Positions 13,166 through 61,186 of a DNA stretch of 64,000 bases are shown here, piece after piece; within the stretch, counting starts at the first letter, position 1, and each line of letters begins with the position of its first letter. The notes under the pieces were generated by a model. It did not search any database. It saw only the letters and a program-made list of their open reading frames with translations, and was not told where the DNA came from. The position numbers and the translations under genes are program-made. Origin of the DNA: Squalus acanthias (lineage: Eukaryota); NCBI GenBank assembly GCA_030390025.1, contig CM059432.1:74650001-74714000 (forward strand), in the 5' to 3' direction.

Positions 13166-13252
13166 AAAGGATCTTAGCTCTGAAAATCAAGAAGCGAGTG
13201 GTGATGACCTGGAATTCACTGCTGACAGAAGTGGTGGTAGTGGAGACACTCA

Positions 13253-14145
13253 GGGGTAGAAATTAGGTCGCGCCCCATTTGGGGCGCAAATATCGTCTGG
13301 ACGCAAATATAAGCGCCTGGCGCTAATTATCGGCACTGACTGGAAACTTCACTTTTACCGCCCTGGGAGGTGAGTGGAACGCTTAAGCAGGCGCTGCACA
13401 CCTGTCTTAAGGCGCAAAGGCCGAGCAGTGAGGCGCTAACTCAGAGCGCTGGCGAAGCTCATGTAATGTCAGTCAGCAATGGAACACACACACAATGGCA
13501 TGGGCCAGTTCTTAAAGGGGATGGTTAATCTTGCTTTCCATCCACATCCTGTTCATTGCAGCCTTGAATCTCGGCCTGGAGAGACTTGCACATCAAATGT
13601 GCTGGAAAGAACAATGGAGAGTACCAGGCAAAGAGCTCAGAGTGCAGCTCCCACAGTCTCTGCTAAATCGATACAAGGAATGGCAAATCAAAATGAACCT
13701 GCAAAGTGCTGCTCAGTACCCAAAACTCCTTCACACAACGTTGAATCTCTCCAGAAGTCTCTCCCTCTCTCTCTCAGAATGCGTAGTTCAAAAATGCCAC
13801 CAACAATAAAAGACAGGAAGAGGCCCCCTTTAAATAGCGCCCCCCCCAGCCCCACAGCGATTGATAGCGTTCCAGTCTTCTAGTCGTTGGAAGCGCCAGG
13901 CGGTAAGGCAGGGGGCGCCACTCAATTTCCGCGCCGGGGCGCCACAAGGGCGTTGCACCATGGAATGACGTCACAATCTGCGCGCGCAGGTGGTCGCAGC
14001 GGTAAGTTTTAGCGCCGCCGCACAATGTCAAGTTAAGTTCCCGAGCGGCGCAAACATCGCTGCGCCCGGGCGTTAGCGGCTTTGCGCCCCATTAGCGCCC
14101 TCTTAAGGCGCTAACGGGAGGCGCAACCAACTGAATTTTTACCCC
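13253..14145 (-). mobile_element. Harbinger MITE B (893 bp), non-autonomous relative of H2
   Basis: TIRs as in H2, TCA TSD; several hundred bp at both ends nearly identical to the H2 ends. Confidence 0.95.
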
Positions 14146-14305: not shown

Positions 14306-15198
14306 GGGGTAAAAATTCAGTTGGTTGCGCCTCCCGTTAGCGCCTTAAGAGGGCGCTAATGGGGCGCAAAGCCGCTAACGCCCGGGCGCAGCGATGTTTG
14401 CGCCGCTCGGGAACTTAACTTGACATTGTGCGGCGGCGCTAAAACTTACCGCTGCGACCACCTGCGCGCGCAGATTGTGACGTCATTCCATGGTGCAACG
14501 CCCTTGTGGCGCCCCGGCGCGGAAATTGAGTGGCGCCCCCTGCCTTACCGCCTGGCGCTTCCAACGACCAGAAGACTGGAACGCTATCAATCGCTGTGGG
14601 GCTGGGGGGGGCGCCATTTAAAGGGGGCCTCTTCCTGTCTTTTATTGTTGGTGGCATTTTTGAACTACGCATTCAGAGAGAGAGAGGGAGAGACTTCTGG
14701 AGAGATTCAACATTGTGTGAAGGAGTTTTGGGTACTGAGCAGCACTTTGCAGGTTCATTTTGATTTGCCATTCCTTGTATCGATTTAGCAGAGACTGTGG
14801 GAGCTGCACTCTGAGCTCTTTGCCTGGTACTCTCCATTGTTCTTTCCAGCACATTTGATGTGCAAGTCTCTCCAGGCCGAGATTCAAGGCTGCAATGAAC
14901 AGGATGTGGATGGAAAGCAAGATTAACCATCCCCTTTAAGAACTGGCCCGTGCCATTGTGTGTGTGTTCCATTGCTGACTGACATTACATGAGCTTCGCC
15001 AGCGCTCTGAGTTAGCGCCTCACTGCTCGGCCTTTGCGCCTTAAGACAGGTGTGCAGCGCCTGCTTTAGCGCTCCACTCACCTCCCGGGGCGGTAAAAGT
15101 GAAGTTTCCAGTCAGTGCCGATAATTAGCGCCAGGCGCTAATATTTGCGTCCAGATGATATTTGCGCCCCAAATGGGGCGCGACCTAATTTCTACCCC
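14306..15198 (+). mobile_element. Harbinger MITE C (893 bp), inverted near-identical copy of MITE B
   Basis: GGGGTAAAAATT / AATTTCTACCCC, TAT TSD inside a TATGACTC tail. Confidence 0.95.
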
Positions 15199-16128
15199 TA
15201 TGACTCTAAGTAGAATCCGTTTGGATGGAGCTAAGAAACAGCAAGGGGCAGAAAACATTGGTGGGAGTTGTTTATAGGCCCCCAAACAGTAGTTGTAATG
15301 TAGGGCAGAGTATAAATCAGGAAATTAGAGGCGCATATAACAAGGGTAATACAGTAATCATGGGGGACTTTAATCTACATATAGACTGGGCAAACCAAAT
15401 TTGCAGTAATAGTGTGGAGGATGAATTCATGGAATTTATGCAAGATAGTTTTCTAGATCAGTATGTTGAGGAACCAACAAGGGGACAGGCTATTTTAGAT
15501 CTAGCATTGTGCAATGAGAAAGGGTTAATTAATAACCTTGCAGTAAAGGGGCCTTTACAGAAGAGTGACCATAATATGATAGAATTTTATATTGAGTTTG
15601 AAAGTGATTTAGTTAAATCCAAAACTAGGGTCTTAAATCTAAACAAAGCAAACTACGTGGACATGAAGGGCGAGTTGGCTAAGGTAGATTGGGAAACTAC
15701 ATTAAAAGGCATGACGGTAGACAAGCAATGGCTAGCATTTAAAGAATTAATACATAATTTACAACAAATATACATTCCTTTGAGGCACAAAAACCCCACA
15801 GGAAAAGTGGTCCAACCATGGCTAACAAGAGAAGTTAAAGATAGTATTAGATCAAAGGAAGAGGCTTATAATGCTGCCAAAAAGAGTAGTAAGCCTGAGG
15901 ATTGGGAGTATTTTAGAATTCAGCAAAGGAGGGCCAAGAAATTGATAAAGAAAGGGAAAATAGAATGAGAGTAAACTAGCGAGAGACATAAAAACAAACT
16001 GTAAAAGCTTCTATAGGTATGTAAAAAGGAAAAGATTAGCAAAAGTAAATGTGGGTCCCTTACAGGCTGAGACAGGAGAGATTATAATGGAGAATAAGGA
16101 AATGGCAGAGAAATTAAACAAATACTTT

Positions 16129-16922: not shown

Positions 16923-18755
16923 TTTGTGTCTGTCTTCACAGAAGAAGACGCAAAAACTTCCCGGAATTAGTGAAGAACCAAGGATCTAGCGAGAATGAGG
17001 AACTGAAAGAAATTAGTATTATTAAAAAATTAGTATTGGAGAAATTAATTGGACTGAAAGCCGATAAATCCCCCTGGACCTGATGGCCTACATCCTAGGT
17101 TTTTAAAAGAGGTGGCTATAGAGATAGTGGATGCATTGGCTGTCATTTTCCAAAATTCCATAGATCCTGGAATGGTTCCCTTGGATTGGAAGGTAGCAAA
17201 TGTAACCCCACTATTTAAGAAAGGAGGGAGAGAGAAAATGGGGAACTACAGACCAGTTAGCCTGACATCAGTAGTAGGGAAAATGCTAGAATCTATTATT
17301 AAGGACGTGGTAACAGGGCACTTAGAAAATAATAATAGGATTGGGCAGAATCAACACGGATTTATGAAAGGGAAATCGTGTTTGACGAATCTGTTAGAGT
17401 TTTTTGAGGTTGTAACTAACAGAATAGATAAGGGGGAACCAGTGGATGTGGTGTATTTGGATTTTCAGAAGGGATTCGATAAGGTGTCACACAAGAGGTT
17501 ATTAAACAAAATTAGGGCTCATGGGATGGGGGGTAATATACTAGCATGGATTGAGGATTTGTTAACGGACAGAAAACAGAGAGTAGGAATAAACGGGTCA
17601 TTTTTGGGTTGGCAGGCTGTAACTAGTGGGGCACTACAAAGATCAGTGCTTGGGCCTCAGCTATTCACAATCCATATCAATGATTTGGATGAGGGGGCCA
17701 AATGTAATATATTCAAGTTTGCTGATGATACAAAGCTAGGTGGGAATGTAAGTTGTGAGGAGGATGCAAGGAGGCTTCAAGGGGATATAGACAGGCTAAA
17801 TGAGTGAGCAAGAACATGGCAAATGGAATATAATGTGGATAAATGTGAAGTTATCCACTTCAGTAGGAAAAATAGAAAAGCAGATTATTTTTTAAATGGT
17901 GAGAGATTGGGAAATGTTGGTGTTCAGAGGGACCTGGGTGTCCTTGTACACGAATCACTGAAAGTTAACATGGAGGTACAGCAAGCAATTAGGAAAGCAA
18001 ATGGTATGTTGGCCTTTATTACAAGAAGATTTGAGTATAAGAGTAAAGATGTCTTAATGCAATTATATAGGGTCCTGGTGAGACCGCACCTGGAGTATTG
18101 TGTACAGTTTTGGTCTCCTTACCTAAGGAAGGATATACTTGCCATAGAGGGAGTGCAACGAAGGTTCACCAGACTGATTCCTGGGATGGGGGGATTGTCT
18201 GATGAGGACAGATTGAGTCGACTAGGCCAATATTCTCTAGAGTTTAGAAAAATGAGAGGTGATCTCCTTGAAACATACAAAATTCTTACAGGGCTTGACA
18301 GGGTAGATGCAGGGAGAATGTTATCCCTGGCTGGGAGTCTAGAACCAGGGGTCACAATCTCAGAATAAGGGGTCGGCCATTTAGGACTGAGATGAGAAGT
18401 TTCTTCACTCAGAGGGTGGTGAATCTTTGGAATTCTCTACCCCAGACAGCTGTGGAGGCTCAGTCATTGAGTATATTCAAGACAGAGATCGATGGATTTT
18501 TGAATGTTGAGGGAATCAAGGGATATGGGGATAGTGCAGGAAAGTGGAGATGAGGTAGAAGATCAGCCATGATCTTATTGAATGGCGGAGCAGGCTCAAA
18601 GGGTCAAATGGCCTACTCCTGCTCCTATTTCTTATGTTCTTATGGTCTTATGATAGGCACTGAAATCTGGATATGTGAGCACACATTCTCATACTCAGCC
18701 TCCAAATAACAACTTCCAGCAGCGGTCATTCCAAGACTGAGAGGTTCCTTTTCAG

Positions 18756-18908
18756 GAGTGCGGTTTAAACAGAGTGCCGCGAGTTGGGCGAGTCAGGGAG
18801 TCTTGTGAGGAGTGGAAGGAGGAGCTCCCTTGCTTCGCCTTTGTTGGCGAGATACAGGCTGCGAGATTCTCAGCTCAGCTCAGCTCAGCTCGGTGCTGTG
18901 TGAACGGG
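18756..18908 (+). repeat. Shared 5'-leader cassette, copy 1 (lacks the TATA-containing upstream half)
   Basis: GAGTGCGGTTTAAACAGAGTG..GAGGAGTGGAAGGAGGAGCTCCCTTGCTTCGCCTTTGTT..(CTCAG)n..GTGTGAACGGG matches 23223-23369 and 25917-26006. Confidence 0.9.
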
Positions 18909-21900
18909 ACTGAGTGCAGTTTGAACAGAGTGCTGAGAAGAGGAGAGGAGAGGAAAGGTCTCTCTCTGTGCCTAGGAGAAGAAGACAGAGCCACGAAGGA
19001 CAGAGTGGAGACCCTTTCCACCTCCACCACGCCTGTTGCTACTACAACTATTACTGCTGAGGTGCCAGGAGAGAGGAGAGGAGAGAGAGGAGAGACCTAC
19101 GTCAACTGGGGGAGGTGAGGTCGGGGATTAATCCAATCCCGCTCGGCTGCAGGGAGGCCAGCCTCCGGCACGTCTTCTCCTTCCGGCGCCAGCTATTTAT
19201 CCAGCTGGTGCGGGAGGAGGACACAGAGGGCGCGTTTGTCGTCCAACACGAGGGGACTGCCTACCGCTTCTGGATGTCGGACGGTGTGCGGTGCCACGCC
19301 TGCAAGGAGGTGGGGCACATAAGAAGGAACTGCCCCACCTCCAAGGCCGCCAAAACATGAGTCACCTCTCCAACATTTCCGGCGGGGTGGCTATCTTGCT
19401 GGCCCCGCATTTTCAGCCGGAGATCTTGGGGGTCAAGGAGCATGTGCCGGGCCGCTTGCTCCAGGTTACTGTTCGCCTGGGGGGCGTGCCACTCCATTTA
19501 GTGAACGTGTACACCCCCCAGGCCGGTGCGCAGCAAGTGCGCTTCTTCAAAGAAGTGTCCGCTCTTCTGGGCACCGTCAACGTCGGCGAGTGCGTCATCC
19601 TCGGGGGGGATTTTAATTGTACCCTTGAGGCGAGGGACCGTTCCGGTCTCCCGCGAAGCCTGGCGGCGACAGTGAAGTTGAGGGACCTGGTCGGGTCCCT
19701 CGACTTGGTGGACATCTGGCGGAATCTCCATCCCGACTCCAGCACCTTCACTTGGGTGGGGTCTGGAGGAGGAAGGTCCAGAATCGACCACCTTTATATT
19801 TCCCGGGTGTACGTCTCCTGCGTTCCGGCGGCTTCCATGCGGCCGGTGCCGTGCACGGACCACCACCTGGTGTGGGCGGAGCTCGCTCCGTTGCGCGCGC
19901 CGGGGGAATCCGCGTACTGGCATTTTAACAACCTACTGCTGGAGGATGAGCGGTTCCGGGATTCGTTTCGTCGGTTCTGGGCCGACTGGCGAAGGAAGCT
20001 GGGGGGCTTCCCCTCCTTGAGGCTATGGTGGGACGTGGGCAAGGCTCACGTCCATTTCTTCTGTCACGAGTACGCGAGGGGGTTGACCAAGAGGCGGGAG
20101 GCCTGGGTCGGGCGGTTGGAGAAAGAAGTGCTCGACCTGGAGTCCCGTCTCGGTCAAGTCGTCGAAGACCCGGCCCTGCGGAAGGTGTACGAAGAGAAGA
20201 AGGGCGCGCTCAAGGACCTGCAGCTCGTCGGGTCCCGAGACGCGTACGTGAGGTCGCAGATCCAGTTCCTCCGGGAACTGGACCGCGGCTCCCCCTTCTT
20301 CTACTCGCTGGAAAAAGGACGGGGGGTCCGTAAGCAGCTCTTGGGGCTGCTGGCCGACGACGAGGGAATCAGCGCGGAGACCCGGGCCTATTACGGGGCT
20401 CTGTTCTCTCCGGATCCGTCCAGCGAAGATGCGCGCAGAGATTTGTGGGAGGACCTGCCGAAGGTCGGCCCGGAGGTCGCCGAGAAATTGGAAGCTCCGC
20501 TAAGCCTGGCGGAGCTGACCGGCGCCCTGTGCCAGCTCTCGAGGGGAAAGTCCCCGGGGCTGGACGGGCTGACTGTGGAGTTCCACAGGGCGTTCTGGGA
20601 CGTCTTGGGGGGCGACTATACGCGGGACCTGGGGGAAAGTCTGGCGACCGGGTAGATGCCCCTCTCTTGGCGCAGGGTGGTCATCGTCCTGCTGCCCAAG
20701 AGGGGTGATCTCCACCTCTTAAAAAACTGGCACCCGGTCTCTCTCCTCAGCACGGACTATAAAATTTTTGCCAGGGCTATGTCTGCCCGCCTTGGCACCG
20801 TGCTGGCCCACATGATCCACCCCGACCAGTCCTACACGGTCCCGGGCCGGACCATCCATGACAACATCCATCTGGTCCGGGACCTGGTCCACCTTTCCCA
20901 GAGGGCTGGTCTGTCGGTCGCCTTCCACTCCCTGGATCAGGAGAAGGCGTTCGACAGGGTGGATCACGAGTATCTTTTCGGAACTCTGCGCGCATTCGGG
21001 TTCGGGACGCATTTCGTCGCCCGGATCCGACTTCTGTACGCCGCCGCGGAGTGTCTGATTAAAGTTAACTGGTCTTTGACGGCGCCCCTTCGCTTCGGGA
21101 AGGGGGTACGTCAGGGATGCCCCATATCCGGTCAGTTATACACCGTTTGCGTGGAGCCTTTCCTGCGCCTCTTGCGGAAGAGGTTGACGGGACTGGCTCT
21201 GCAAGGGCCGGGCGTGGAGGTCGTCCTCTTGGCTTACGCCGATGACGTGCTCCTCATGGTTACGGATCCCATCGACTTGCGGAGGATGCGAGAATGCCAG
21301 CAGATTTACTCGGACGCATCCTCCGCCAGGATCAACTGGGAGAAATGTTCTGGACTCCTGGTGGGCCAATGGTGGGTGGACCCCCTGCCGGAGGAGTTCA
21401 GGCCCTTGGAGCACAACGCACCTCCTCTACTTGGGAGTCTACCTCGGCCCTGCTGAGGACACCTGGCCGGCGAACTGGCAAGAGCTGGAGGCCAAATTCA
21501 CCGCTCGCCTAGGACGCTGGACGGGGTTGCTCCGAGTGTTGTCCTACAGGGGTCGAGCGCTGGTCATAAACCAGCTGGTGGCCGCCATGTTGTGGTACCG
21601 GTTGGTCACTTTGATCCCTCCCCCTGCGTTTGTCGCCAAGATACAGAAGATGCTCATCGACTTCTTCTGGGACAAAAGGAAGCACTGGGTCTCTGCCGCG
21701 GTTCTGTGTCTCCCGCTTAGGGAGGGCGGTCAGGCGCTGGTGTGCATTCGCACCCAGGCGGCGACTTTCCGTCTTCAGACGCTGCAGAGGTACCTTTACG
21801 TCGAGAATCCTCCCAGATGGTGTGCGCTGGTGACGTATTTCTTCCGCCAGATGCACGGCCTCAACTACGACACGCAGCTCCTGTTTGTGGAATTGGGCCG

Positions 21901-23110
21901 CACGCGTGCCTACCTGTGGGAGCTGCCTGTCTTCTACCAGGAACTGCTATGGGTCTGGAACCAGGTCGCCTCCAGGCGGAGTTCTCCCCCGTCAGGAGCC
22001 GCTGCTCAGGAATCCGCACCTCCACGTCCGACGGATCGGGTGGCTGGTGGAGGGCAGGGCTGTGCCTGGCAAGGTGACCAGAGTCAGGGACCTGCTCGAT
22101 GGCAGAGGAGCGGGCTGGATGGCGCCGGAGGAGTTGGCGCGGCGCCTCTCCTGGGTCGATGTCTGGTGCGCGACCAAAGCCATCGAGTCGCTAAAAGTGG
22201 CACTGGGCCCGGACTCCACTAGGTGTATCGAGGAGGCTGAAGCACGTGTGGCGATCCCGTCCGAACTGACCTCCGTTCGGACGGAATTCCTCATCGGCGC
22301 GCGGCCCCGAAACCCCTCTCGGGAACCGGCGCCTCACAACTTGAGCCGTCTCGGGGAAATGCCCTCTGTGCCCTTCAGTTCTGCACGGAGGGGTTTCCTG
22401 TACGGGCTGCTGCTGCACACTTTCCAGTTTGTCATCTTCGCCTGCCGTCCGGACACGCCTTGGCGTGCCATCTTGCCGTCCGGCGGAGGCGAAGGTCCCC
22501 AATGGAGGGCTCTCTACGCGGGAGTCCTCCCCTTTTCTATTGGGGACCTGGCCTGGAGGGTGTTGCACGGAGCAGTCCCGTGCAATCAGTTTTTAAGTAG
22601 GTTCACGGACTCCCAGGCCGCCTGTCTTTTTTGCGGCCTCGAGGAGTCCGTGTTCCACGTGTACGCACAATGTGAGAGGTTGCAGCCCCTCTTTGAATAT
22701 TTGAAGGGGCTGCTCCTCGCTTTTTGGTTGCACTTCAGTCCCACGCTCCTGATCTATGGTCACCCGGTGCGGAGGGGAGAGGGCAGGTTGGAGGACCTCC
22801 TCGTAGGACTGCTCCTGGGCCTGGCCAAAGTGGCCATTAACAGGTCCAGGCAGCGGGCGGTCGAGGGGGTCGTTCGGCCCAATTGCCTGCCTCTCTTCCA
22901 TGGCTATGTTCGCGCCCGGGTGGCCCTGGAGATGGAGCACGCGGTGTCCACCGGCACGCTTGAAGCCTTCCGAGACCGGTGGGTACCGCAGGAACTGGAG
23001 TGCATCGTCTCCCCGGACAATGTTATTTTAGTTTAATGAGATAAGTTTCATTTGAAGTTTTGTTAATTTACAGTCGTTTTATGTTGACTCAAAAAGAGTT
23101 ACAAAAGAGT
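18909..23110 (+). mobile_element. Tx1-clade (L1 group) non-LTR retrotransposon, internally deleted
   Basis: ORF1 remnant with CCHC knuckle CHACKEVGHIRRNC joined to ORF2; short T-rich 3'UTR ending AAAAAGAGTTACAAAAGAGT. Confidence 0.9.
19357..23036 (+). pseudogene. Tx1-type ORF2 (APE + RT + C-terminal zinc finger); one stop (20653) and frameshifts near 21410 and 22000
   Basis: GGVAILL, GGDFN, SRID, TDH, WHFNNLLL, KSPGLDGL, DQEKAFDRV, GVRQGCPISG, YADD, CLFCGLEESVFHVYAQC. Confidence 0.92.
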
Positions 23111-23369
23111 TACAATTCAGAGCAGCTGAAGGCAGTTAATTAGGGAAACTAGATAAACTGGTTCTCCTGTAGCAGAACCCAGCAAGCTCCTTTGTTTCAG
23201 GGCCTATAAAAACAGGCTTTGCAGTGCGATTTAAACAGAGTGCTGTGAGTTGGAGGAGTCAGGGAGTAAGGTGAGGAGTGGAAGGAGGAGCTCCCTTGCT
23301 TCGCCTTTGTTGGAGAGACACAGGCTGTGAGAATATCAGCTCAGCTCAGCTCGGTGCTGTGTGAACGGG
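23111..23369 (+). promoter_or_regulatory. Shared TATA-promoter/leader cassette, copy 2
   Basis: TACAATTCAGAGCAGCTGAAGG..CCTATAAAAAC (TATA 23205-23211)..AAACAGAGTG; 18 bp shorter than copy 3 just downstream of the TATA. Promoter function inferred. Confidence 0.7.
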
Positions 23370-23873
23370 TGAGCGAGCATACCCCGGCTGCTTGCGGGGA
23401 ATGCTAGTACAGAGGGCCTGGTACAGAAGGCCCGGGGCGGGAAGGCTGTGAGATTCTCAGCTTAGCTTGGTGCTGTGTGAACGGGCTGTTCCACACCCCG
23501 GCTGCTCGCAGGTAATGCCAGTGCGGAGGGCCCAGTGCAGAAGGTCCAGGGTGAAAGACCCAGAGGAGAGTGGCCTAGGTGGGAGGCCCAGCACGGGGAA
23601 CCCCAGGCGGGGGGCCTAGGGTGGCCTAGGTGGGAGGCCCAGCATGGGGAACCCCAGGCGGGGGGCCGAGGGTGGAGCGGCTAGTCGGCAGAGGTGGAGT
23701 TGGGAGATGCTGTGGGTGAGCATGCTGCACTGGTTCTAAAAGTTCAAGAATGGTGTCGGGCCCGAATGAGTTCCAGCGGCCCTGTATGTGCCCTGTCTGG
23801 CGGCAGCTGTGAGGCTTTTTCTTGGTGACGGGATCGGGTTCGTGCGCCGCCATTTTGGTGGAGGAAAGACAAA

Positions 23874-24134
23874 GGGCTGGATTTTGATACAGGGGCGGGT
23901 TGGGGTCGTGTTATCCACCCGCCTGCAATTGGATGTGGGAGATTGATGCAATTTTCACTTAATTGGGCAATTGAGTTCCAGCATGTGGGAACCCATGAAC
24001 TAATTAGTGGTTTCAGTCTGAAAGTCACCTCTGATGATGTCATCATTGCAGGTCAGAGACTGCCTGGCTTTTGCTATGAGAGGACCAGGATGCAAAATGA
24101 GCACGCACACACACACACACAGAGACAGAGAGAC

Positions 24135-24188
<54 letters not shown>

Positions 24189-24406
24189 AAAGCCAAAGCC
24201 AAAGCCAAAGCCAAAGCCAATGCAGGGCTTGTTAAGGGCTTTAATGGCCTCTCCCGCCTCTTGCAGGCGGGACGGAGTCGGGAACACCGCACATGATTTT
24301 ATCAAAATTGCGTGAGGCGGGATGTGGTCGGGGACCCCGAAATCTGCAACTTTAACCCCCCCCACGCCTCCAAACCCGACTCCACGGGTCATTGGAAATC
24401 CAGCCC
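23874..24406 (+). mobile_element. Harbinger MITE E (533 bp), relative of H3
   Basis: GGGCTGGATTTTGATAC.. / AAATCCAGCCC, AAA TSD; both arms align by eye to the H3 ends; centre is microsatellite. Confidence 0.9.
24102..24220. repeat. Compound microsatellite (CA)n-(GAGACAGA)n-(GA)n-(GCCAAA)n
   Basis: Directly visible. Confidence 0.95.
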
Positions 24407-25021
24407 AAACTGTTTCCATCTGTAGCATGGCGCGTGAGCGGTCACAAGATGGAAAATGTGAACGGTTAAAAGTGGAAAAAAAAAGGAAAATTAAAGGAAG
24501 ATAAAAGACAAAACTAAGTCATATCGGTGAGGAATAATGAATATTTTTTGATGACTGGGTCCTGTGAGCGATAACAGCAAGTAGAAGAAAATCTGAGTTT
24601 TCTGTCTTTTTTACGGGATTAAGAAAGTGGATGATTTCTTTTCCGTGGAAAAGCTGAAGACTGTGGACAAGGACTGTGACATCACATGGTTTGACAAACA
24701 TCAAGTGAAAACGAGGAGTTATTAGATTGCCAATAGGACTGGCATAGAACTGGTATTTACTTGTTTTGTCGAAAAAAGTTTCAGGTTTTCTGGTTGAAAG
24801 CAATCTACTTGAAGTTTTAATTGATTTCTGATAAGGTTATGGGATTTTGCAGATTGTGTTGTTAATTAGTGTTTATGTAGAATTTGCTTTGAGATTATTG
24901 TCTAGTAAATGGTATGTCTTATAAAAAGGAAGAAAATAAGTTAATGGGGGGAAAATTAAAAGGAAGAAACATTGGTAAGAAATTTATGGCTGGCTTTCGG
25001 GGGGGAAAAAATGTCCTTATT

Positions 25022-25440
25022 GAACGAACGAACGAACGAACGATTGCACGCATGCATATTGGAACTTACGCTTGATCGAAGGAACAATCATTTGGCTAGC
25101 GATTGAACGAGCGAATGCACACATGCACGCACTTAGACAAATGGTACGCACGCACGCATACATATTGGAACTTACACTCGATCGAACGAACGACGTTTAG
25201 TCGCGGGCCGGGCAATGAATGATCGAACGGACGAGCGAACGCAAGCATGCACATTGGAACTTATACTCGATCGAACGAACGGTCGTTGGCCTCTGAACGA
25301 GCGAACGCACGCATGCACGCACTTAGACAAACGATACGCATGCACATTGGAACTTACGCTCGATCAAACGAACGAACGCTTGAGTGAACGAACGAACGAT
25401 TGAATGAACGATCGTATGAACGATTGAATGAACAAACGAT
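25022..25440. repeat. CpG-rich complex tandem repeat: (GAAC)n plus four copies of a ~36-nt motif
   Basis: GCATGCACATTGGAACTTACGCTCGATCGAACGAAC-like motif near 25050, 25156, 25245 and 25338. Confidence 0.85.
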
Positions 25441-25786
25441 GCTAGTAGGACTGGCATAAAATGGGTAGTAGTATATTTGTAGCATTTAATTGAATTATGA
25501 TGGTGCTATGTGATTTGTACACTGAGGTGTCAAACTGTTTTCTTTTATGTGGCGTTTACCTTGAGATTTATTGTTTTAAATCTACAAAGTTTGTGAGATT
25601 ATTCAAGGGTATTTGTACTGTAAACTTTGATTTATTTGTAAAATGTTATTAATGTATTTATATTGTTAATCGTAAAGCTGTTCTTAAGGCTTTATTGTTT
25701 GTTGTGATCAATGAATGTAATGGTCTACTATGTAATTGATGAGCTGTGTAAGTACTATTGTACTTGAATAAAAGATTTACAAGGCC

Positions 25787-26006
25787 TACAATTCAGAGCA
25801 GCTGAAGGCAGTCAATTAGGGAAACTAGATTAAACTGGTTCTCCTGTAGCAGAACCCAGCAAGCTCCTTTGTTTCAGGGCCTATAAAAACAGGCTTTGCA
25901 GTGCGATTTTTGCACTGAGTGCGGTTTAAACAGAGTGCTGCGTGTTGGGTGAGTCAGGGAGTAAGGTGAGGAGTGGAAGGAGGAGCTCCCTTGCTTCGCC
26001 TTTGTT
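25787..26006 (+). promoter_or_regulatory. Shared TATA-promoter/leader cassette, copy 3, in front of CR1 #2
   Basis: Same TACAATTCAGAGC start; TATAAAA at 25882; GCACTGAGT with A at 25914 (TATA+32), a plausible start site. Confidence 0.75.
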
Positions 26007-26294
26007 TTTCCTAACTTTTCACCCTGTAGGAATTGGTTCTTACTTTACACCAAGGAAAGAGTCTGAGAGCAGGAGCAGTCCAACAACAACTGAAAAACCG
26101 CTAAAGTGATGTCACAACTAGGGAAGGAGCTGATTCGTAAGTAGGACCAGGTGAGTGTTTCTACAGTCCAGTCGTTAAAGTAAAAGTAAGGTCTCTAGTT
26201 TAGAGTAAGTAGTGTTTAAAGGGAAGTAAGGTCCCTAGTGTATTTAATATTCTTTAATTTAAAGGAAGTAAAGGGAGTAAATTAAGGGTAGGAC

Positions 26295-27240
26295 ATGGCA
26301 GGGCAGCTCGGCAACGTGGAGTGCTCCTCCTGTGCTATGTAGGAAGTCAGGGACACTTTAGGTGTCCAGGGTGAACACATGTGCAGGAAGTGTCTCCAGC
26401 TGCAGCTACTCGAAATCCACGTTTCAGAGCTGGCGCTGCGGCTGGAGTCACTGTGGAACATCCGCGAAGCTGAGATCTTCGTGGATAGCACGTTTAACGA
26501 GGTGGTCACACCACAGGTAAAGAGTGCACAGGCAGACAGGGAATGGGTGACCGCCAGACAGAGTAAAAGAACTAGGAAGGTAGTGCAGGAGTCCCCTGGG
26601 TCCATCTCCCTCTCCGACAGATTTTTCGTTTTGGATACTGCTGGGGGAGATGGTTTCTCAGGGGAATGCAGCAAGAGCCAAGTCCATGGCACTACGAGTG
26701 GCTCAGCTGCACAGGAGGGGAGGAAAGAGTGGGAGAGCAATAGTGATAGGGGATTCTATCGTAAGGGGAACAGATAGATGGTTCTGTGGCTGCAGACGTG
26801 ACTACAGGATGGTATGTTGCCTCCCTGGTGCCAGGGTCAAGGATGTCACTGAACGGCTGCAGGGCATTTTGAAGGGGGAGGGCGAACAGTCAGAGGTCGT
26901 GGTTCACATTGGTACCAACGACATGGGTAGAAAGAGGGATGAGGTCCTGCAACAAGAATTTAGGGAGCTAGGTAGCAGATTAAAAAGCAAGACCTCAAAG
27001 GTTGTAATCTCTGGATTACTCCCGGTGCCACGTGCTAGTGAGTATAGGAATAGGAGGATAGAGCAGATGAATGTGTGGCTAAAGAGTTGGTGCAGGAGGG
27101 AGGGCTTTAGTTTCCTGGATCACTGGGTCTGCTTCTGGGGAAGGTGGGACCTGTACAAGTCGGACGGGTAGCACCGGAACGGGACCAACATCCTTGCGGG
27201 GAGGTTTGCTGGTACTGATGGGGGGGGGTTTAAACTAACT
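26295..27240 (+). pseudogene. CR1 #2 ORF1 (zinc finger/zipper + SGNH esterase)
   Basis: MAGQLGNVECSSCAM*..CRKCLQLQLL; IGDSIVRG; HIGTND; DLYKSDG; stop and frameshift present. Confidence 0.88.
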
Positions 27241-27357
27241 TCGCAGGAGGATGGGATACGGAGTGGAGCTATAGTAGGGGGTGATGCACAGCCAAATATA
27301 GAGGAAAAAGCAAGTCAGCCTGGAAGGCAGAGCAAATATGTAACGGCACAAGGGAGT

Positions 27358-30300
27358 ATGGCAAGGCTGGATGGCATTTATTTTAATGCAAGGAGTCTTG
27401 CGAGTAAGGCAGATGAATTGAAGGTGTTGATGAACACATGGGAGTATGATATTGTTGCTATCACAGAGACATGGTTGAGGGAGGGTCAGGACTGGCAGCT
27501 CAATATTCTGGGGTATAGAATCTTCAGGTGACAGAGGGGGGTGTAAAAGAGGAGGGGGTGTCACAATATTAATCAAGGAGTCAATTACTGCTGTACGGAG
27601 GGATGATATCTTAGCAGGTTCCTCTAATGAGGCCATATGGGTAGAACTTACAAAACAAAAAGGGGGCCAGCACTTTGCTGGGAGTGTACTATAGGCCCCC
27701 AAACAGTCAGGGGGAGATAGAGGAACTGATATGTAGGCAAATCTCAGAAGTGTAGAAATAATAGGGTAATACTAGTAGGGGATTTCAACTTCCCCAATAT
27801 TAACTGGGATAGTCAGAGTGTGAAAGGCTTAGAGGGTGCGGAATTCTTAAAGTGCATCCAGGGGAGCTTTTTGAGCCAGCATGTAGAAAGTCCTACAAGA
27901 GAGGGGGCGGTAATGGACCTAATTCTAGGGAATGTAGCCGGGCAAGTGGTAGAAGTGTCAGTAGGAGAGCATTTTGGTGACCGTGACCATAATTCGGTGA
28001 GATTTAAGGTAGTCATGGTAAAGGACAAAGATGGACCGGAAATAAAGGTTCTAAATTGGGGGAAGGCCGATTTTAATATGATAAGGCAGGATCTGGCCAA
28101 AGTGGACTGGGATCAGCTACTTGTAGGAAAATCCACATCAGAGCAGTGGGAGTCCTTCAGAAAGGAAATAGAGAGAGTACAACGCCAACATGTTCCCGTA
28201 AAGGTCAAGGGTGGGACCAACAAGCCCAGGGAACCCTGGATGTCAAGGGATATACAAGAATGGATTAGGGAAAAAGGGAGGCTTTTGGCAGATACAAAGG
28301 ACTAAACAGTGGAAGCCCCAGAGGAGTATAGAAAGTGCAGGGGGGCACTTAAAAAATAAATTAGGAGAGCGAAGAGGGGGCATGAAAAAACACTGGCGGG
28401 CAAAATAAAGGAAAATCCCAAGGTGTTTTATAAGTATATTAAGGGCAAGAGGATAACCAGGGAAAGAGTAGGGCCCATTCGGAACTAAAGTGGCAATGTG
28501 TGTGTAGAGCCGGAAGATGTGGGTGAGGTTGAAATGAATATTTTGCATCTGTGTTTACTATGGAAAAGGACGATGTAGGCATAGAAATCAGGCAGCGGGA
28601 TTGTGATATACTTGAACAAATTAGTATTGGGAGGGAGGAGGTACTAGCGCTTTTAGCGGGCTTAAAAGTGGATAAATCCCCAGGCCCAGACGAGATGTAT
28701 CCCAGGCTGCTGCGTGAGGCAAGGGAGGAGATTGCAGGGGCTCTGACACAAATTTTCAGAACCTCTCTGGCCACAGGGGAGGTGCCAGAGGACTGGAGAA
28801 CAGCTAACATAGTACCATTATTCAAGAAGGGTAGTAGGGATAAACCAGGGAATTACAGGCCAGTGAGCCTAACATCAGTGGTAGGGAAATTATTGGAAAA
28901 AATTCTGAGGGACAGAATTAGTCTCCACTTGGAGAGGCAAGGATTAATCAAGAATAGTCAGCATAGCTTTGTCAGGGGGAGATCGTGTCTAACCAATTTG
29001 ATTGAATTTTTCGAGGGGGTGACTAGGTGTGTGGATGAGGGTAGTGCAGTTGATGTAGTCTACATGGACTTCAGTAAGGCTTTTGACAAAGTCCCGCATG
29101 GGAGACTGGTCAAGAAGGTAAGAGCCCATGGGATCCAGGGCAATTTGGCACATTAGATTCAAAATTGGCTTAGTGGCAGGAGGCAGAGGGTGATGGTCGA
29201 AGGTTGTTTTTGTGACTGGAAGCTTGTGTCCAGTGGTGTACTGCAGGGATTGGTGCTGGGTCCCTTTCTGTTTGTAGTGTACATTAATGATTTAGATATG
29301 AATGTAGGAGGTATGATCAGTAAGTTCGCAGATGACACGAAAATTGGTGGAGTGGTAAATAGTGAGGAGGGAAGCCTCAGGCTACAGGACGATCTAGACG
29401 GGTTTGTTAGATGGGCAGAACAATGGCAAATGGAATTTAACCCTGAAAAGTGTGAGGTGATGCATTCTGGGAGGACTAACAAGGCAAGGGAATACACAAT
29501 GAATGGTAGGACCCTAGGAAGGACAGAGGATCAGAGGGACCTTGGTGTGCATGTACATAGATCCCTGAAGGCAGCAGGACAGGTAGATAAGGTGGTTAAA
29601 AAGGCATATGGGATATTTGCCTTCATTAGCCGAGGCATAGAATATAAGAGCAGGGAGGTTATGATGGAGCTGTACAAAACGCTAGTTACATAGAAACATA
29701 GAAGATAGGAGCAGGAGTAGGCCATTCGGCCTCTCGAGCCTGCTCCGCCATTCGATGAGATCATGGCTGATCATCCAAACTCAGTACCCTGTACCTGCCT
29801 TCTCCCCATATCCCTTGATACCTTTAGCTTTAAGAAATATATCTAACTCATTCTTGAATATATTTCATGACTTGGCCTCAACTACCTTCTGTGGTAGAGA
29901 ATTCCACAGGTTCACCACTCTCTGGGTGAAGAAATTCCTCCTCATTTCTGTCCTAAATGGCTTACCCCTTATCCTTAGATTATGACCCCTGGTTCTGGAC
30001 TCTCCGACCATCGGGAACATTCTTCCTGCATCTAGTTTGTCCAGTCCTGTCAGAATTTTATATGTTTCGATGAGATCCCCTCTCATTCTTCTATACTCCA
30101 GCAGGTATAAACCCAATCGACCCAATCTCTCCTCATATGTCATTCCTGCCATCCCAGGTATCAGCCTTGTGAATCTTCGCTGAACTCCCTCCATGGCATG
30201 AACATCCTTCTTAGGCCACAGCTGGAATACTGTGTGCAGTTCTGGTCGTCACACTATAGGAAGGATGTGATTGCATTGGAGAGGGTGCAGAGGAGATTCA

Positions 30301-30689
30301 CCAGGATGTTACCTGGGCTGGAGCGCTTCAGCTATGAAGAGAGACTGGACAGGCTGGGGTTGTTTTCTTTAGAGCAGAGAAGGTTGAGGGGGGACCTGAT
30401 TGAGGTGTACAAAATTATGAGGAGCATAGATAGGGTAGATAGAAAGGAACTTTTCCCCTTAGTAGAGGGATCAATAACCAGGGGGCATAGTTTCAAGTTA
30501 AGGGGCAGGAGGGTTAGAGGGGATTTGAAGAAAAACCTTTTCACCCAGAGGGTGGTTGGAATCTGGAACTCACTGCCTGAAAGGGTGGTAGAGGCAGGAA
30601 CCCTCACAACATTCAAGAAGCATTTAGATGAGCACTTGAAACGCCATAGCATACAAGGCTACGGACCAAGTGCTGGAAAATGGGATTAG
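27358..30689 (+). pseudogene. CR1 #2 ORF2 (APE + RT), with frameshifts, stops and an insertion
   Basis: YFNARSL, ITETWL, GDFN, DKSPGPD, YMDFSKAFD, FADDTKI, RPQLEYCVQFWS, GYGPSAGKWD*. Confidence 0.92.
29689..30210 (-). mobile_element. 5'-truncated CR1 3' fragment inserted antisense in CR1 #2
   Basis: MEGVQRRFTRLIPG..WNSLPQ on minus strand, (TTTCTATG)n tail, TTA TSD; host frame KTLV-RPQLEY restored. Confidence 0.9.
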
Positions 30690-31048
30690 AATAGACAGGG
30701 CTTGATGGCTGGCGTGGACACGATGGGCTGAAGGGCCTCTTTCTGTGCTGTATAACTCTATGACTCTATGGGCTGGATTTTGATACTGGGGCGGGCTGGG
30801 GTCGTGTAATCCGCATTTCGTGTTAGCTTCCCGATTCTAAATCGATGTGGGAGAATTATGCCATTTTAACCTAATTGGCCAATTGAGTTCCAATGTGTGG
30901 GAACCCATGGCCAGTGAGTTTTTCCAGTCTGAAAGTCGCCTCCGATGATGTCATCATTGCTGCTGCATTTAAGGTCTGCAACAAGTCTTGCTTCTTCTGC
31001 AGACTGCCAAGCTTTTGCCCTTGCATGTTAGAGGCACCTGCAGGAAGA

Positions 31049-33035
31049 ATGGCCAGCCAGAGACCTAGGTCTGCACCTCGATTTGATGACGTTGCCCTGC
31101 AGGCTTTAGTAGAGGGAGCAAGAGCAAACAAAGAGGTGCTCTTCCCTTCTTCAGGGAGGAGGAAGCCTCCCCAGCCAACCAAGGCTGTGTGGATCCAGGT
31201 GGCAGAGGAGGTCAACTCTTTGTCAATAACCCGCAGAACCTGGCTTCAGTGCAGGAAGAGGCTTCATGACCTTCTGCGCACTGGAAAAGTGAGTATGAAT
31301 TTCCCATCACCCTCAATCTGATCCCCATTGCCTCTCCTCACCAGCACTCAGCTTTAGCAATCTCTTCCTCCACATCCCACTTGACACTGACATCCCTGCA
31401 CCCTTACCCATTCCCTCTCTCTCTATGGTCACATTCACCTAACTATTCGCCTATGCAGCCCTCACACTCCCTATCACTGTGATGCAATTACAACTTACAA
31501 CACACAGGGAGGGCCCTTGGTCTTGCCACCTCACTCCATCTTTGTCTCCTTCTAAGCATCTATGCTATGGATTCTCTACACTCACTCCTTCATTCTCACT
31601 CAAACTCCACTTGTCTCCCTCATTGCAGGAAAAGAGAGCTCACAATAAGAGGGAAAGAGTGAGGACAGGAGGAGGGCCACCCTCAGTAGCCCAGCTCACC
31701 ACCTGGGATGGGATGAGGCGGTCCTGGAGATGGTGGGAGTGGAGGAATATTCCCAAGTGGGGGACGGACAGACGGGTGCATCACAGCAAGCCGGTGACAG
31801 AATAGTTTTCCATCTCTCTCAATGACATTGCATGAGTCGCTGATAATGATTCTGAAGCTCTAACAGATGGACTTATGATCATCTGCAATATGCAATGTGT
31901 AACCTTGGCCTCACATCTCTGACTCTTTCCTTTACTCCCCCCCCCAGGACCATCGCAAGCACCCGTCCCCACTATCCAGGAGGAAGAGCATGAGCCTCAA
32001 GACTCCTCAGAGGAAGCTGCAACCTCTGAGGGCGCAGCGTCAGCAGAATTCAGCGCACCCAGCACCAGCGCAGACACTCACACCTCCGAGGGAACATTGC
32101 GAGATAGAGTAGTGTTGTCACCTGGTGTATCACAGCTCACAAGTGAGCATCAGCAGATAGTGGAGACAGGGACAGCAGTGGAGAGTCCTAGTCGGAGGGC
32201 GCAGGACTCTCCCAGCTCGGCTCAGCTGCATGTCGACCCTCTGCCTCTGGGTCCATCCATAAGATCAGCAGTGCTGGAACTCCAGGAACAGATGCAGGAG
32301 TCTCTGGCAGGTTTTGTCTCCAGGGTCGCTGCGAGTGTGGAGCGAATGGAGGAGTCCATTGCGAACATGAGCAGAGCCTTTGTGGAGTCATTAGCGCATG
32401 AACGCATCACCACGGAAAGGATGGCAACGTCCGTGCAAATGATGGCAACCTCCGTCGAAAGGATGGCTACAGTAGACGATAAGATATCTGCGGCCATGGA
32501 GGAGATAAGTCGCCAGAGTGCAGAAAACATGGTGAGTGTTCAGAATAGAATGACATCTCTGGAGGAGCGATGGTCATCTATTGAACACAGAAACCAAACC
32601 TTCATGGAAGTCCTTCTGAGTAGGACTTCCAGTGCAGATACGGGTCCCCATGGCCCCCCTGATGTGCAGCAAGGTGCTCTCAATCCACTTGCAAGCGCTG
32701 AGGTGGACCTGACCCATGAGAGGGATGTTGTTTGCAGAGAACAAGGAAGTGGGGGCTCCTCTCCAAGCGCTCACACTTCCATGCCACTGACAAGTCCTCG
32801 GTCAAAGCCCCACCAGAGTTCGCACCCAACTGAGATCGGCGTCTCAACTCCTGCACAGCCGCAGGAGCAGCAGACTGTTGGCGAGCTCTCTCAGGTTCGC
32901 AATCACAGAGGACGCCCGCCAAAGGTGTCGAGACAGGAGCAGCAAGAAAGTGAGCAACGGGCCTCCACATCTGCTGAAGCCACAGGGGAAGCACCACGTA
33001 GGAGCACGTGTAAGAGAAAGATAGTGCACAAATAG
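31049..33035 (+). pseudogene. H3 Myb/SANT-like gene, 3 exons (31049-31288, 31629-31793, 31948-33035); 5-bp GGGAT duplication frameshifts exon 2
   Basis: MASQRPRSAPRFDDVALQALV..VWIQVA..RTWLQCRKRLHDL; EKRAHNKRERVRTGGG; coiled-coil-like exon 3. Exon 2 returns to 3n+1 length if the duplication is removed. Confidence 0.85.
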
Positions 33036-33292
33036 TCACAAGGGTAGTCACTTGGGTGAATTTTGATGTTTTATGTTAAAAAGCCATCAGATGATTACAG
33101 TAAATAAAAAATCTGATGGCTACTGCTGTAGTTGTGGCGTGCGTCATTTCGCGAATGGGACTTCCACATTGAGGGCTTAGGATTACTTGCAATTGTCAGT
33201 ATGGTGTTCAAATTGCTAGGAATCCGCTGGTTCTTGGCCATTGTCGATGCTCAGGTAAGAAGCTGCGAGGCAAAAGTGCTTGATTGGCTAGG

Positions 33293-34554
33293 CTAAGCAA
33301 ATCTGGCCAAGATGAGTGCGTTCCTTGCATCCTGGGCAGCAATGTTCTCGCGTACTGCTGCCGCTGGTTGATGGGCCTCTGCAAGATGTTTGTTTTCGCT
33401 CTCCTCCTCCTCCTCCTCCTCCTCCTCATCTGAGGAGGCTATGTGACGAGCCACTTGGTCCTCAGGAATCTGCAAGCCACGACGCTGTGCCATGTTGTGA
33501 AGTGCACAGCAAACCACGACGATTCTGGAGACCCTGGCTGCTGAGTACTGCAGGGCTCCACCTGATCTATCCAGGCATCTGAAGCGCATCTTCAGCAAAC
33601 CGATGGTTTGCTCAATTATGGCTCTGGTGGAAATGTGGCTGGAGTTGTAGCTCTCCTCAGCTTCGTTGGATGGGCTCCTCAACGGCGACATTAGCCACGT
33701 TTTCAGGGGATAGCCCTTGTCTCCAAGTAGCCATCCGTTAAGTTGGTCTGGCGGACTGAATAGCGGAGGCACACTAGACTGGTGCTGTATGAAGGAGTCA
33801 TGGCAACTGCCAGGGTACTTGGCACAAACATGCAAAATTTCCTTCTTGTGGTCACACACCAGCTGCATGTTGAGGGAGTGGAAGCCCTTGCGGTTGACAA
33901 AAATACCTGGATTGCGATGGGGTGCCTTAAGGGCCACGTGTGCAGTCAACGATGCCCTGCACCCTTGGAAAGCCTGCCAGATTAGCTAATCCAACCGCAC
34001 GCGCCGTAAGACTTGCTTGATCCTTGGTGAAATGGATGTGATTGTGCGCGATGGCAAAGAAGGCAAAGGTTACCTGCGTGATGCAAGTGTGTGCGGCCCC
34101 CTGGGAGATGCCGCTGATGTCTGCTGCTGATCCCTGGAATGAGCCTGAGGCAAAAAAGTTGAGTGCGGTGGTGACTTTGATGGCCACTGGTAAGGGTTGT
34201 CCACCTGGTCTTCTGGGCTCCAGGTCTTGTTGCAGCATTGTGCAGATGCCACCCACTACCTCTCGAAAGTCGGAGCCGCCTTTGGCACTGCTGCTCAGAC
34301 ATGTTAAGGTAGCTGACCCTGTGTCTGTAGACCCTGTTTGGGGGGTATCTCCTGCGCCGACGGGCTTCCATGTGCTGGCCCCTTCTGGCCTGTGCAGCTT
34401 CAGGTGGGTGAACAGCAGCTTGGCGCTCCTGTTGTTGCTGCTGCTGTTGGTGCTGCTGCTGTTGGTGCTGCTGTTGTTCATGGTTCTGCTGGTGCCGCGG
34501 CTGGTCTTCGTCCTCATCTGATGTCCAGAAGGGAAGGAAATAAATGGCTCCCAT
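33293..34554 (-). pseudogene. H3 DDE transposase with two frameshifts (near 34262 and 33940); N-terminal polyQ, C-terminal polyE
   Basis: [70 protein letters not shown]. Confidence 0.92.
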
Positions 34555-35229
34555 GCTTCTGGTATATGCCTCAGTTGAGGAAGCGCTCAGTCAAGGTGGC
34601 GAGAGGGGTTTCCCAGGAGGTCACACTGGAGATGGGTGTCAGGCTCCAAACTTCCACAGCTGTGGTTATGCCTTCTAAAAGTTCCCCCAGACCTGAGACA
34701 GCAAAGTCCTGCCACCTGCAAATGATGGCTGATCAAATCTCCTAATTAATGGTTGCGCTGCAGCTGAAAGTCAGCAATCCAATTGTGCTCCCGCCAGGTT
34801 TCACTGTCATGTTTCAGAACAGGCGTGCTTCACATGGGAAAAGGGTTAAAATCACAAAGGCTTATCAAAATGGCATTATAGAGGCAATTTAGTGCTTGTT
34901 AAGGGCCTTAACGGCCTATCCCGCCTCTTGGAGGCGGGACGGAGATGGGACCAGTAGACAAGATTTAATGAAAATTGCTTGGAGGTGGGATGGAGGCGGG
35001 GTTGGGCCCGCCCGCCAGTTTTTGCAATTTTAACCATCCACACGCCTCCAATCCCGCCTCAACGGCGCGATGAAATTCGAGCCCTATGACTCTGAGACAT
35101 CCACTTTCAGCATGGTGGAAGGACCAGTGCAATTCAGCTTGTGATGTGTCAGCCATCTTGTTGTTCTAGACATCCAAGTCCAATGCTGCACACTTATTGC
35201 TCATCAATAAGTGCTTAATTCAGATGCTC

Positions 35230-39800: not shown

Positions 39801-40002
39801 AAATATATCGCCGATCCTTCATCGTCGCTGGGTCAAAATCCTGGAACTCCCTACCTAACAGCACTGTGGGAGTACCATCACCACACAGACTGCAGCGGTT
39901 CAAGAAGGCAGCTCACCACCACCTTCTCAAGAGCAATTAGGGATGGGCAATAAATGCTGGCATTGCCAGCGATGCCCAGATCCTATAAATGAATAAAAAA
40001 AA
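36880..40002 (+). mobile_element. ORF1-less CR1-like LINE with a tRNA-derived (SINE-like) head
   Basis: A box CGGCATAGTGG (36884-36894), B box GAGTTCAAATCC (36949-36960), then one APE-RT region and an A-rich tail. Confidence 0.88.
37290..39940 (+). pseudogene. APE + RT region of the tRNA-headed LINE, frameshifted, with small deletions
   Basis: [78 protein letters not shown]. Confidence 0.9.
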
Positions 40003-40682
40003 GTTTCCTCTTAGTTTTGAGTCTCATTAGAATTCCGTACTCTGAAACATCAATGGTATGTGTGCCTCAAAACAGAAAATCATTGGCCACATTATCCAAA
40101 ATTGTGTCTGCCCACCTAGCACAATGAGATTTGAAGTATGTGCAGACTAGGTAATGTTTTAATTTTTTATGCACAGAGGATTGTTAGGTCATTGAGTGCC
40201 GTACCAGAAACATCGAATAATGAACTGCCCCCTTCCCAGCTATCAACTTTAGTTTAATGAGAACTATAGTCTAGCTATAAACACAAGTAAGGTGTTGGGG
40301 AAAAGCTTGAATCATAACAGTCACCAGCTCCACTGAAGCAACCAGCAGCAGATACAAATTCTGCAGGACAATCATAGGGAGCTTGAGAAAGATGTACAGG
40401 GTCATGCACAGAGCACAAAGGATGAAAGGATATCAGTGGTGTGAGCTGATTAGTCTTCTCCAGGCAGAAGATTCAGCAGACTGAGTTCCCCTCCTGTGTT
40501 GTAAGGGGTCTGCTTTCCAACAGAGGATACTGGAGTACATGGTCCACTTGGTCACTTGCCTCTGTACATACAGCACAGGAAGTAGGTATGGTTGTTCGTA
40601 CCAATGATTCTCTGCATTGAGTTAGTGACAACCCAGAGGCACATGCAGTTGAGACCTCAGTAGATTATAGATTTAAAGCTAT

Positions 40683-50800: not shown

Positions 50801-51585
50801 AATAGAAGGGACTAACATAAGGGATTAATAGAAGATATCTATACAAGGGATCAATACAAGGGATCAATACAAGGGATCTATACAAGGGATCAATACAAGG
50901 GATCAATAAAAGGAATCAATAAAATGGATCAATACATGGAATCAATACAACAGATCAATAGAAGTGATCAATACAAGGGAGCAATACAAGGGACCAATAG
51001 AAGGGACTAATAGAAGGGATCAATACAAGTGTTTAATACAAGTGATCAAGAGAAGGGATCAATACAAGTGATCAGGACAGGGGATCAGGACAAGTGATCA
51101 GGACAAGTGATCAGGACAAGGGATCAATACAAGGGATGAGTACAAGGGATCAATACAATGGATCAGTACAAGGGATCAGTACAAGTGATCAATGCAAGGG
51201 ATCAATAGAAGTGATCAATAGAAGGGATCAATACAAGGGATCAATAAAAGGGATCAATAGAAGGGATCAATACAAGGGATCAATACAAGAGACTAATAGA
51301 AGGGATCAATACAAGGGATCAATACAAGGGATCATTACTTGCAATCAATACAAGGGATCAGTACATGCGATCCATACATGGCATCAATACAAGGGATCAG
51401 GAAATGGCTTCAATATAAGGGATCAATAGAAGAGATCAATACAAGGGATCAATACAAGGGAACAATACAAGGGATTAGTACAAGGGATCAGCACAAGACA
51501 TCAATACAAGGGATCAATACAAGGGATCAATACAAGGGATCAATACAAGGGATCAATACAAAGGCTCAAAACAAGAGATCAATAC

Positions 51586-51677
51586 GGGGATAGGGTGGGA
51601 TATGTGTCGATGCAGGCTCGATGGGCCGAAATGGCCTCTACCTGCACTGTGGGAATTCTGTATGCTGTATTCTGTGT
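51586..51677 (+). mobile_element. 92-bp CR1/SINE 3' tail inserted in the satellite, copy 1
   Basis: GGCTCGATGGGCCGAAATGGCC stem-loop, (TTCTGTAT)-like tail, AATAC TSD; empty site visible near 50055. Confidence 0.85.
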
Positions 51678-61094: not shown

Positions 61095-61186
61095 GGGGAT
61101 AGGGTGGGATATGTGTCGGTGCAGGCTCGATGGGCCGAAATGGCCTCTACCTGCACTGTGGGAAATCTGTATGCTGTATTCTGTGT
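61095..61186 (+). mobile_element. Same 92-bp insertion, copy 2 (amplified with the array)
   Basis: Same flanks and length; about three substitutions including the TSD. Confidence 0.85.

Follow-up and report, generated by a model that had tools for sequence, protein, structure and literature searches.

The targets described for Tx1-type long interspersed nuclear elements (LINEs) are Tx1D, U2, microsatellites, and Mariner, long terminal repeat (LTR) and Harbinger elements (PMC4494074). Tx1L of Xenopus laevis is inserted in the DNA transposon Tx1D (PMC4494074, PMC6719617). For the Tx1 groups of crocodilians the targets are Mariner, LTR and Harbinger elements; the accompanying SINEU elements form tandem insertions, and their U1/U2-derived heads recur on some of these Tx1 families. 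For the Tx1-Mar/SINEU pair, transcription from flanking sequence has been proposed (PMC4494074). A Tx1 family is called target-specific in that work when more than 20% of its flanks are one sequence type, and target truncation is also reported for the group (PMC4494074). Here we analyse a 64,000-nt stretch of Squalus acanthias DNA (the window; contig CM059432.1, positions 74,650,001 to 74,714,000 of the forward strand), in which a Tx1L-type LINE, a non-coding unit (X) and a CR1-type LINE stand head-to-tail in the order L-Tx1-P-L-X-P-L-CR1, where P is a TATA-containing cassette and L a leader. The chain opens at 18756, closes with the CR1 tail and spans 16.4 kb, or 11.0 kb (10981 nt) minus nested insertions. 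We propose, giving the idea an even chance of being correct, that a Tx1L-type subfamily targets the 5′ edge of a CR1 promoter module, and that this has made the ends of Tx1 and of X abut the cassette.

The 13-mer TACAATTCAGAGC occurs exactly at 23111-23123 and 25787-25799, as the first-pass annotation of the window had reported, with no third site in the whole window at up to two mismatches. With it begins a repeat of 201/220 nt, in which the two copies match at 196 positions, mismatch at 5 and differ by two indels of 1 nt and 18 nt. The first 119 nt of this repeat form cassette P, whose two copies (P1 and P2) are 98.3% identical over 120 columns, and the portion after it is leader L. The TATA motif TATAAAAA begins at 23205 in P1 and at 25882 in P2, 94–95 nt past the 13-mer, in agreement with the annotated distance of about 95 bp between junction and TATA. 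Judged by the initiator consensus, an initiator-like TTGCACT would set the transcription start (+1) at A25914, TATA+32. In the leader of the middle unit this motif is removed by the 18-nt deletion, which lies between AGTGCGATTT and AGTGCGGTTT right on the P1/L boundary. Two further leader copies, overlooked in the first-pass annotation, stand ahead of Tx1 itself. Both lack P and begin at +4 (18756) and +1 (18909) of the predicted start, and these start points suggest that the two copies derive from RNA 5′ ends. The leader at 18756 matches that of CR1 (25917-26006) at 84 of 90 positions. A 65-nt extension of the leader (L2) is common to the Tx1 unit and X only, and is missing from CR1. P and L together would serve a CR1 family as its 5′ module of promoter and leader, every unit would have acquired the leader, and within the chain each unit would be transcribed from the cassette ahead of it.

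The order leader-body-P of the units, and the 18-nt deletion placed exactly at the P1/L boundary, could also be read in the manner of HeT-A, whose arrays are telomeric and which moves independently of an endonuclease. P would then be the 3′ end of the Tx1 and X elements themselves and serve as promoter for whichever element follows, with the true junction located at the start site (23229 / 25907-25917). We consider this very improbable. AATAAA in X and the A-tract before P in both units mark a 3′ end upstream of P. In sequencing-run contigs (described below), three organisms have P linked to L, a short variant of P occurs in all four runs compared, and the contigs shown across 23109 lack the window's letter on the Tx1 side.

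At both junctions the upstream end closes with AAAAGA(G/T)TTACAA (12 of 13 positions identical), which contains the TTACAA that had been noted at both ends. A score of 12/13 was equalled by 25 of 20000 shuffles, by none of 48651 25-mers of the window and by none of 297 25-mers of the T-rich region of X; BLAST carries the repeat 19 nt further upstream, to 23092/25770. Farther upstream the two ends are unrelated, with 5000 of 5000 shuffles equalling their score. The same cassette is thus abutted in sense orientation by two 3′ regions that are unrelated beyond their last ~20 nt. The annotation had called the two ends unrelated throughout, which is correct upstream of the last ~20 nt and incorrect for the terminal motif. 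It had also let both join the same nucleotide, which the alignment does not bear out, since no closer placement of the junction than about 23091-23116 / 25770-25792 is possible. The lack of a poly(A) had been overstated: a short A-tract of 4–5 nt is present at each end (23091-23095 and 25770-25773), the second overlapping AATAAA (25767-25772). Going by these letters, an element with an A-tail would probably prime more naturally at the A-tract, 15–20 nt upstream of the site proposed earlier. Folded as single strands, the junctions did no better than shuffles (z −0.03, 0.20, 0.12).

In the proposed mechanism, the endonuclease of a Tx1 subfamily would preferentially nick at the 5′ edge of the TATA cassette, probably opposite the A-tract, 15–20 nt upstream of TACAATTC, and the A-rich end of the RNA would prime on the exposed T-tract. 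AAAAGA.TTACAA..TACAATT would then belong to the target rather than to the tail, and the tandem AAAAGAGTTAC of the first junction would be a slip at initiation. The preference would be confined to one Tx1 subfamily and would not extend to all Tx1 copies of the genome. A wider version of this proposal, in which the Tx1 subfamily and its 2-kb partner home to the CR1 TATA promoter edge, capture the leader as their own head and build self-perpetuating chains of LINEs from different clades on one borrowed promoter outside telomeres, one LINE living as a parasite on the promoter of another, is held more tentatively; we think it possible, at somewhat less than an even chance.

The Tx1 identity of the first upstream end, claimed in the first pass, is borne out by Pfam, by the homologue search and by mapping to Tx1L. 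The second open reading frame (ORF2) carries Exo_endo_phos, RVT_1 and zf-RVT domains, the last at 27.2 bits, just below its cut-off of 27.5. It lacks about the first 55 residues and is interrupted by a stop at 20653 and by frameshifts near 21407 and 21995. ORF1 is a fragment with a zinc knuckle (zf-CCHC, E 3.6e-05), and both its 5′ part and its C-terminal part are missing. Through a second deletion, this zinc knuckle is fused to ORF2 at about its residue 55, and contigs carry other letters ahead of 19356. The GA-rich spacer upstream was considered as the start of ORF1 and rejected; tblastn homology with four ORF1 homologues begins at 19097. In a quick tree, built on 26 rows that comprise the window and 25 of the 47 matches (the Heterodontus protein P0002 was aligned and left out of the tree), the window protein falls in a five-row clade with Xenopus Tx1L, one sturgeon protein and two turtle proteins (Shimodaira–Hasegawa-like approximate likelihood ratio test, SH-aLRT, 100). 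Over the endonuclease-linker region it is 70% identical to the Heterodontus protein, 51% to the sturgeon, 48% to the turtle and 44% to Xenopus Tx1L. Searches of metagenomes for the Tx1 C-terminus gave 598 pattern matches and no confirmed locus.

The middle unit X is likely a non-autonomous partner of Tx1, because it has L and L2 in common with the Tx1 unit and because its own 3′ region is T-rich and carries AATAAA and a short A-tract. A non-autonomous partner would be expected to have just such a common leader and terminal motif. Coding homology in X was sought and rejected: none of 47 Tx1/L1-type proteins gave a tblastn match under E 0.4, and no Pfam family was found in its two ORFs of at least 150 amino acids. 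A Harbinger-type miniature inverted-repeat transposable element (MITE) is nested in X at 23874-24406 with an AAA duplication, and GAAC-rich repeats occupy 25021-25439. These repeats lie between two diverged T-rich blocks (24728-24901 and 25440-25574), which are 69–82% identical in short stretches.

CR1-clade LINEs have an ORF1 with an SGNH esterase, an ORF2 with APE endonuclease and reverse transcriptase (RT), and a tail of short tandem repeats. By its domains (Lipase_GDSL_2, Exo_endo_phos_2 and RVT_1) and its tail of the octamer ATGACTCT, the LINE at the downstream end of the chain fits this clade. It is interrupted by an antisense CR1 piece (29689-30214). The ATGACTCT tail also houses a Harbinger transposon (30770-35084), which has DDE_Tnp_4 together with a second, divergent ORF and shows a TAT duplication. 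The end of the CR1 ORF1 reads TTTAAAC followed by TAA (27229-27238), with ORF2 going on from one base earlier; this may be a −1 frameshift site.

Part of 22700-23400 is contained in 20 sequencing runs, with no RNA run listed among them. Four (X1, X7, X8 and X11, bearing four organism labels) were compared with 18600-23228, a range that takes in neither X nor P2. All 30 bins of this range are covered in all four runs. In three of the four, contigs link P with a leader start (23208 to 18756 in X8, 23227 to 18926 in X1, 23228 to 18913 in X11). A variant of P that lacks the 49-nt segment 23152-23200, directly upstream of GGCCTATAAA, is present in all four, and the extra T of P2 is found in 11, 2, 13 and 7 of their contigs. 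The bridging, the variant and the extra T recur across runs, so P-L is a repeat module with variants and not a local duplication. The possibility named in the first-pass annotation as opposed to a target site, that P is simply a fixed CR1 5′ module, is partly true: P is joined to L in contigs of three organisms, which fits targeting of the module edge and template jumping equally.

Under template jumping, the RNA of CR1 would begin at the A-tract before P, and the RT would jump to the A-tails of two further leader-bearing RNAs within one insertion event, with no sequence-specific endonuclease involved. The P-L bridging in three of the four runs shows a module that travels together, the A-tracts at both junctions fit annealing of the T-end of a cDNA to the start of an A-tail, and there is no duplication around Tx1 alone. 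One X1 contig joins a CR1 3′ tail (18643) to the leader start (18756), with a shorter side of 22 nt, and template jumping has been invoked for the SINEU heads (PMC4494074). Yet the two captured RNAs have one leader in common, which would not be expected if polyadenylated RNA were captured at random, a start at TATA+32 would exclude P from the RNA, and the duplication around the whole chain is poor (12/17). We rate this explanation as rather unlikely.

Five X1 contigs align across 23109, two letters before the 13-mer, and all read C, as does the second junction; a related junction thus recurs in the X1 organism. These contigs may stem from Tx1-P junctions whose target is of the GGCC type, from X-P junctions, or from variants that differ in one letter.

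Target-site duplications were sought at both Tx1 5′ boundaries, and none was found against the tail positions tried. The Tx1 5′ cut (19092-19107) showed no duplication of at least four net matches with six tail positions, and the leader start at 18756 reached at most 7/10 or 12/21. Around the whole chain, 18739-18755 and the sequence directly after the CR1 tail give an anchored match of 12/17, which 39 of 20000 random pairs equal. This chain-wide 17-nt duplication is doubtful, because several end pairs were tried and because five mismatches in 17 nt are improbable if the cassettes differ by ~3% (binomial p about 1e-4; 0.02 at 10%).

The flanking match is a point in favour of a further explanation, that of a one-off master chain. 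Insertion at an A/T-rich site, with unequal recombination or P-L duplication, would have assembled the chain once, and the CR1 machinery would later have copied it as an RNA of ~11 kb from an upstream P (5′ transduction), so that the two junctions would reflect shared descent and no targeting. The start of the chain at +4 of the predicted start site, its end in the CR1 tail and its length of 10981 nt minus nested insertions are as expected from such copying, as is the alignable 20 nt upstream of both P copies. The improbable mismatches and the number of end pairs tried argue against it, and it leaves the two different 3′ regions before P unexplained. We judge it unlikely as a full account; copying of a master chain is compatible with targeting as a later step.

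The site-specific cut by a Tx1 APE endonuclease, as first proposed, gains from the Tx1L kinship and from the two T-rich 3′ regions that abut the cassette, and its position was probably misplaced by ~15–20 nt. Several observations weigh against targeting. Neither Tx1 5′ boundary shows a duplication. All five X1 contigs across 23109 read C and none reads the window's G. The junction is not found among the best 15 of 365 joints, nor is a loose end at 23091-23116 among the best 24 of 3095. The independence of the two junctions is lost if the chain was copied as a unit. The Tx1 copy in the window is dead. Its endonuclease β-hairpin loop (19770-19800) is glycine-rich and three residues shorter than that of Tx1L; the Heterodontus protein P0002 has the same short glycine-rich loop, unlike Tx1L and the sturgeon and turtle relatives. 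This loop has been tied to target probing, and in L1 chimeras a short loop lowers activity and alters the nicking pattern (PMC1950540). The short loop neither proves nor excludes sequence specificity. For comparison with the published threshold of more than 20% of flanks, the window offers one Tx1 3′ end.

Summed contig depth, which is not copy number, cannot rank parts of the locus and is not used here as evidence, is 7.5–17 times higher in the last Tx1 bin than in the cassette bin in all four runs. At 23109 it is 85.8 (X1), 0 (X7), 0 (X8) and 5.7 (X11), and at 23153 it is 5852, 198, 6766 and 6388, in the same order. Its direction would count against targeting by the whole Tx1 population, and hence against a family-wide form of the proposal. 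Contigs break at repeat branch points, X1 is saturated, the cassette bin lies at the edge of the compared stretch, sequences of other Tx1 families map as well at 85%, and a GGCC-type upstream flank would probably cause a cassette to be clipped at 23111.

Table 1. Features of the L-Tx1-P-L-X-P-L-CR1 chain (positions are those of the window)
Feature	Position	Strand	Basis
Doubtful left copy (17 nt, imperfect) of a duplication enclosing the chain	18739..18755	+	Right copy 35094-35110; 12/17 identical
Leader L and extension L2 heading the Tx1 unit, without P	18756..18908	+	84/90 to 25917-26006; 116 matches, 10 mismatches to 23243-23369
Second leader start L′ at predicted +1 (ACTGAG)	18909..18935	+	25/27 identical to 25914-25940
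GA-rich spacer, no Tx1 coding homology	18936..19096	+	tblastn of four ORF1 homologues begins only at 19097
Tx1 ORF1 fragment, about residues 135-221 of homologue, CCHC knuckle	19097..19354	+	61–67% to P0048-P0051
Tx1 ORF2 (APE endonuclease, RT, zf-RVT)	19357..23036	+	Pfam; maps to Xenopus Tx1L P0007 residues 54-1294
Short T-rich Tx1 3′ untranslated region (UTR)	23037..23090	+	48% T
Junction zone 1: A5 tract, AAAAGAGTTAC twice in tandem	23091..23110	+	Sequence; 12/13 match to zone 2
Cassette P1, with TATAAAAA at 23205-23212	23111..23229	+	98.3% to P2; covered in 4/4 runs
Leader L and L2 of the middle unit; 18-nt deletion; 114-bp segment in 1.8 copies	23230..23551	+	Repeat comparison
Body of non-coding unit X	23552..25769	+	GC-rich repeats, nested MITE, GAAC-rich repeats, two T-rich blocks, AATAAA 25767-25772
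Junction zone 2: A4 tract, GATTTACAA, GGCC	25770..25786	+	Sequence
Cassette P2, with TATAAAAA at 25882-25889	25787..25913	+	Sequence comparison with P1
Leader L (to 26006) from predicted start A25914, then CR1-specific 5′ UTR	25914..26294	+	Computed offset
Decayed CR1-type LINE: ORF1 with SGNH esterase, APE-RT ORF2, ATGACTCT tail	26295..35093	+	Pfam, sequence

Searches with cassette patterns gave no loci in metagenome contigs and none in prokaryote genomes. Two viral-contig matches to an 18-mer were dismissed as chance after BLAST at E 0.01 had aligned neither of them to the window. Rfam returned five matches on 18000-27000, all far under the gathering score. Elsewhere in the window, two 894-nt elements (13252-14145 and 14306-15199; 98.9% identical) lie inverted, 160 nt apart, within a CR1, and a third copy is found at 42925-43835 (83% identical). 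A 54-bp tandem repeat (5.1 copies, 97%) at 10681-10953 lies inside a Myb/SANT ORF of another Harbinger element. A LINE at 36880-40003 has RT homology and an AATAAA/A-rich end, with a putative tRNA-like head seen by eye. The region 48902-64000 is a satellite with a 13-bp unit, about 1160 copies and a strong A/G skew.

The closest described element is Tx1L. The window element belongs to the same subclade, is 44% identical to it over the endonuclease and linker, and has the same APE-RT ORF2 and CCHC ORF1; in both cases the target, here a proposed one, is another transposon. The window element differs in its candidate target, which is not a DNA transposon but the 5′ edge of the promoter module of a LINE, in a hairpin loop shorter by three residues and in showing no duplication. 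The Tx1-Mar/SINEU pair (Kojima 2015, PMC4494074) offers a second parallel, with a Tx1 LINE and a non-coding partner that have a target in common, insert in tandem and share 5′ heads. There the heads come from U1/U2 snRNA and the targets are Mariner, LTR or Harbinger elements, whereas in the window it is the putative target itself whose leader serves as head; X, at about 2 kb and with AATAAA, also differs from SINEU (PMC4494074). In the HeT-A/TART arrays of Drosophila, too, different non-LTR elements follow one another head-to-tail and a promoter stands between them; tandem promotion has been described for HeT-A (PMC1636488). Their promoter lies in the 3′ end of the upstream element, and the one described here is apparently part of the downstream module. 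Chimeras formed by 5′ transduction or template switching (SVA, U6-L1) are also composite insertions that begin at an upstream transcription start site, as described in PMC4494074; in the window, by contrast, a single repeated promoter-leader links three retroelement units.

Full-text searches, whose scope leaves out Repbase and most subscription papers, brought up no Tx1 family directed at the promoter of a LINE. The targeting of transposons by Tx1 is already known, and a LINE promoter is plausible as a new type of target within that habit. If the locus arose by template jumping or as a single transduced chain, it would be a curiosity of nested repeats. If the targeting proposal is true, a vertebrate APE endonuclease would have a new natural target together with a short hairpin loop, which would bear on how APE domains gain sequence specificity. 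LINEs of different clades would have a route for swapping their 5′ promoters, and a TATA promoter, expected to be lost at every retrotransposition, would be retained.

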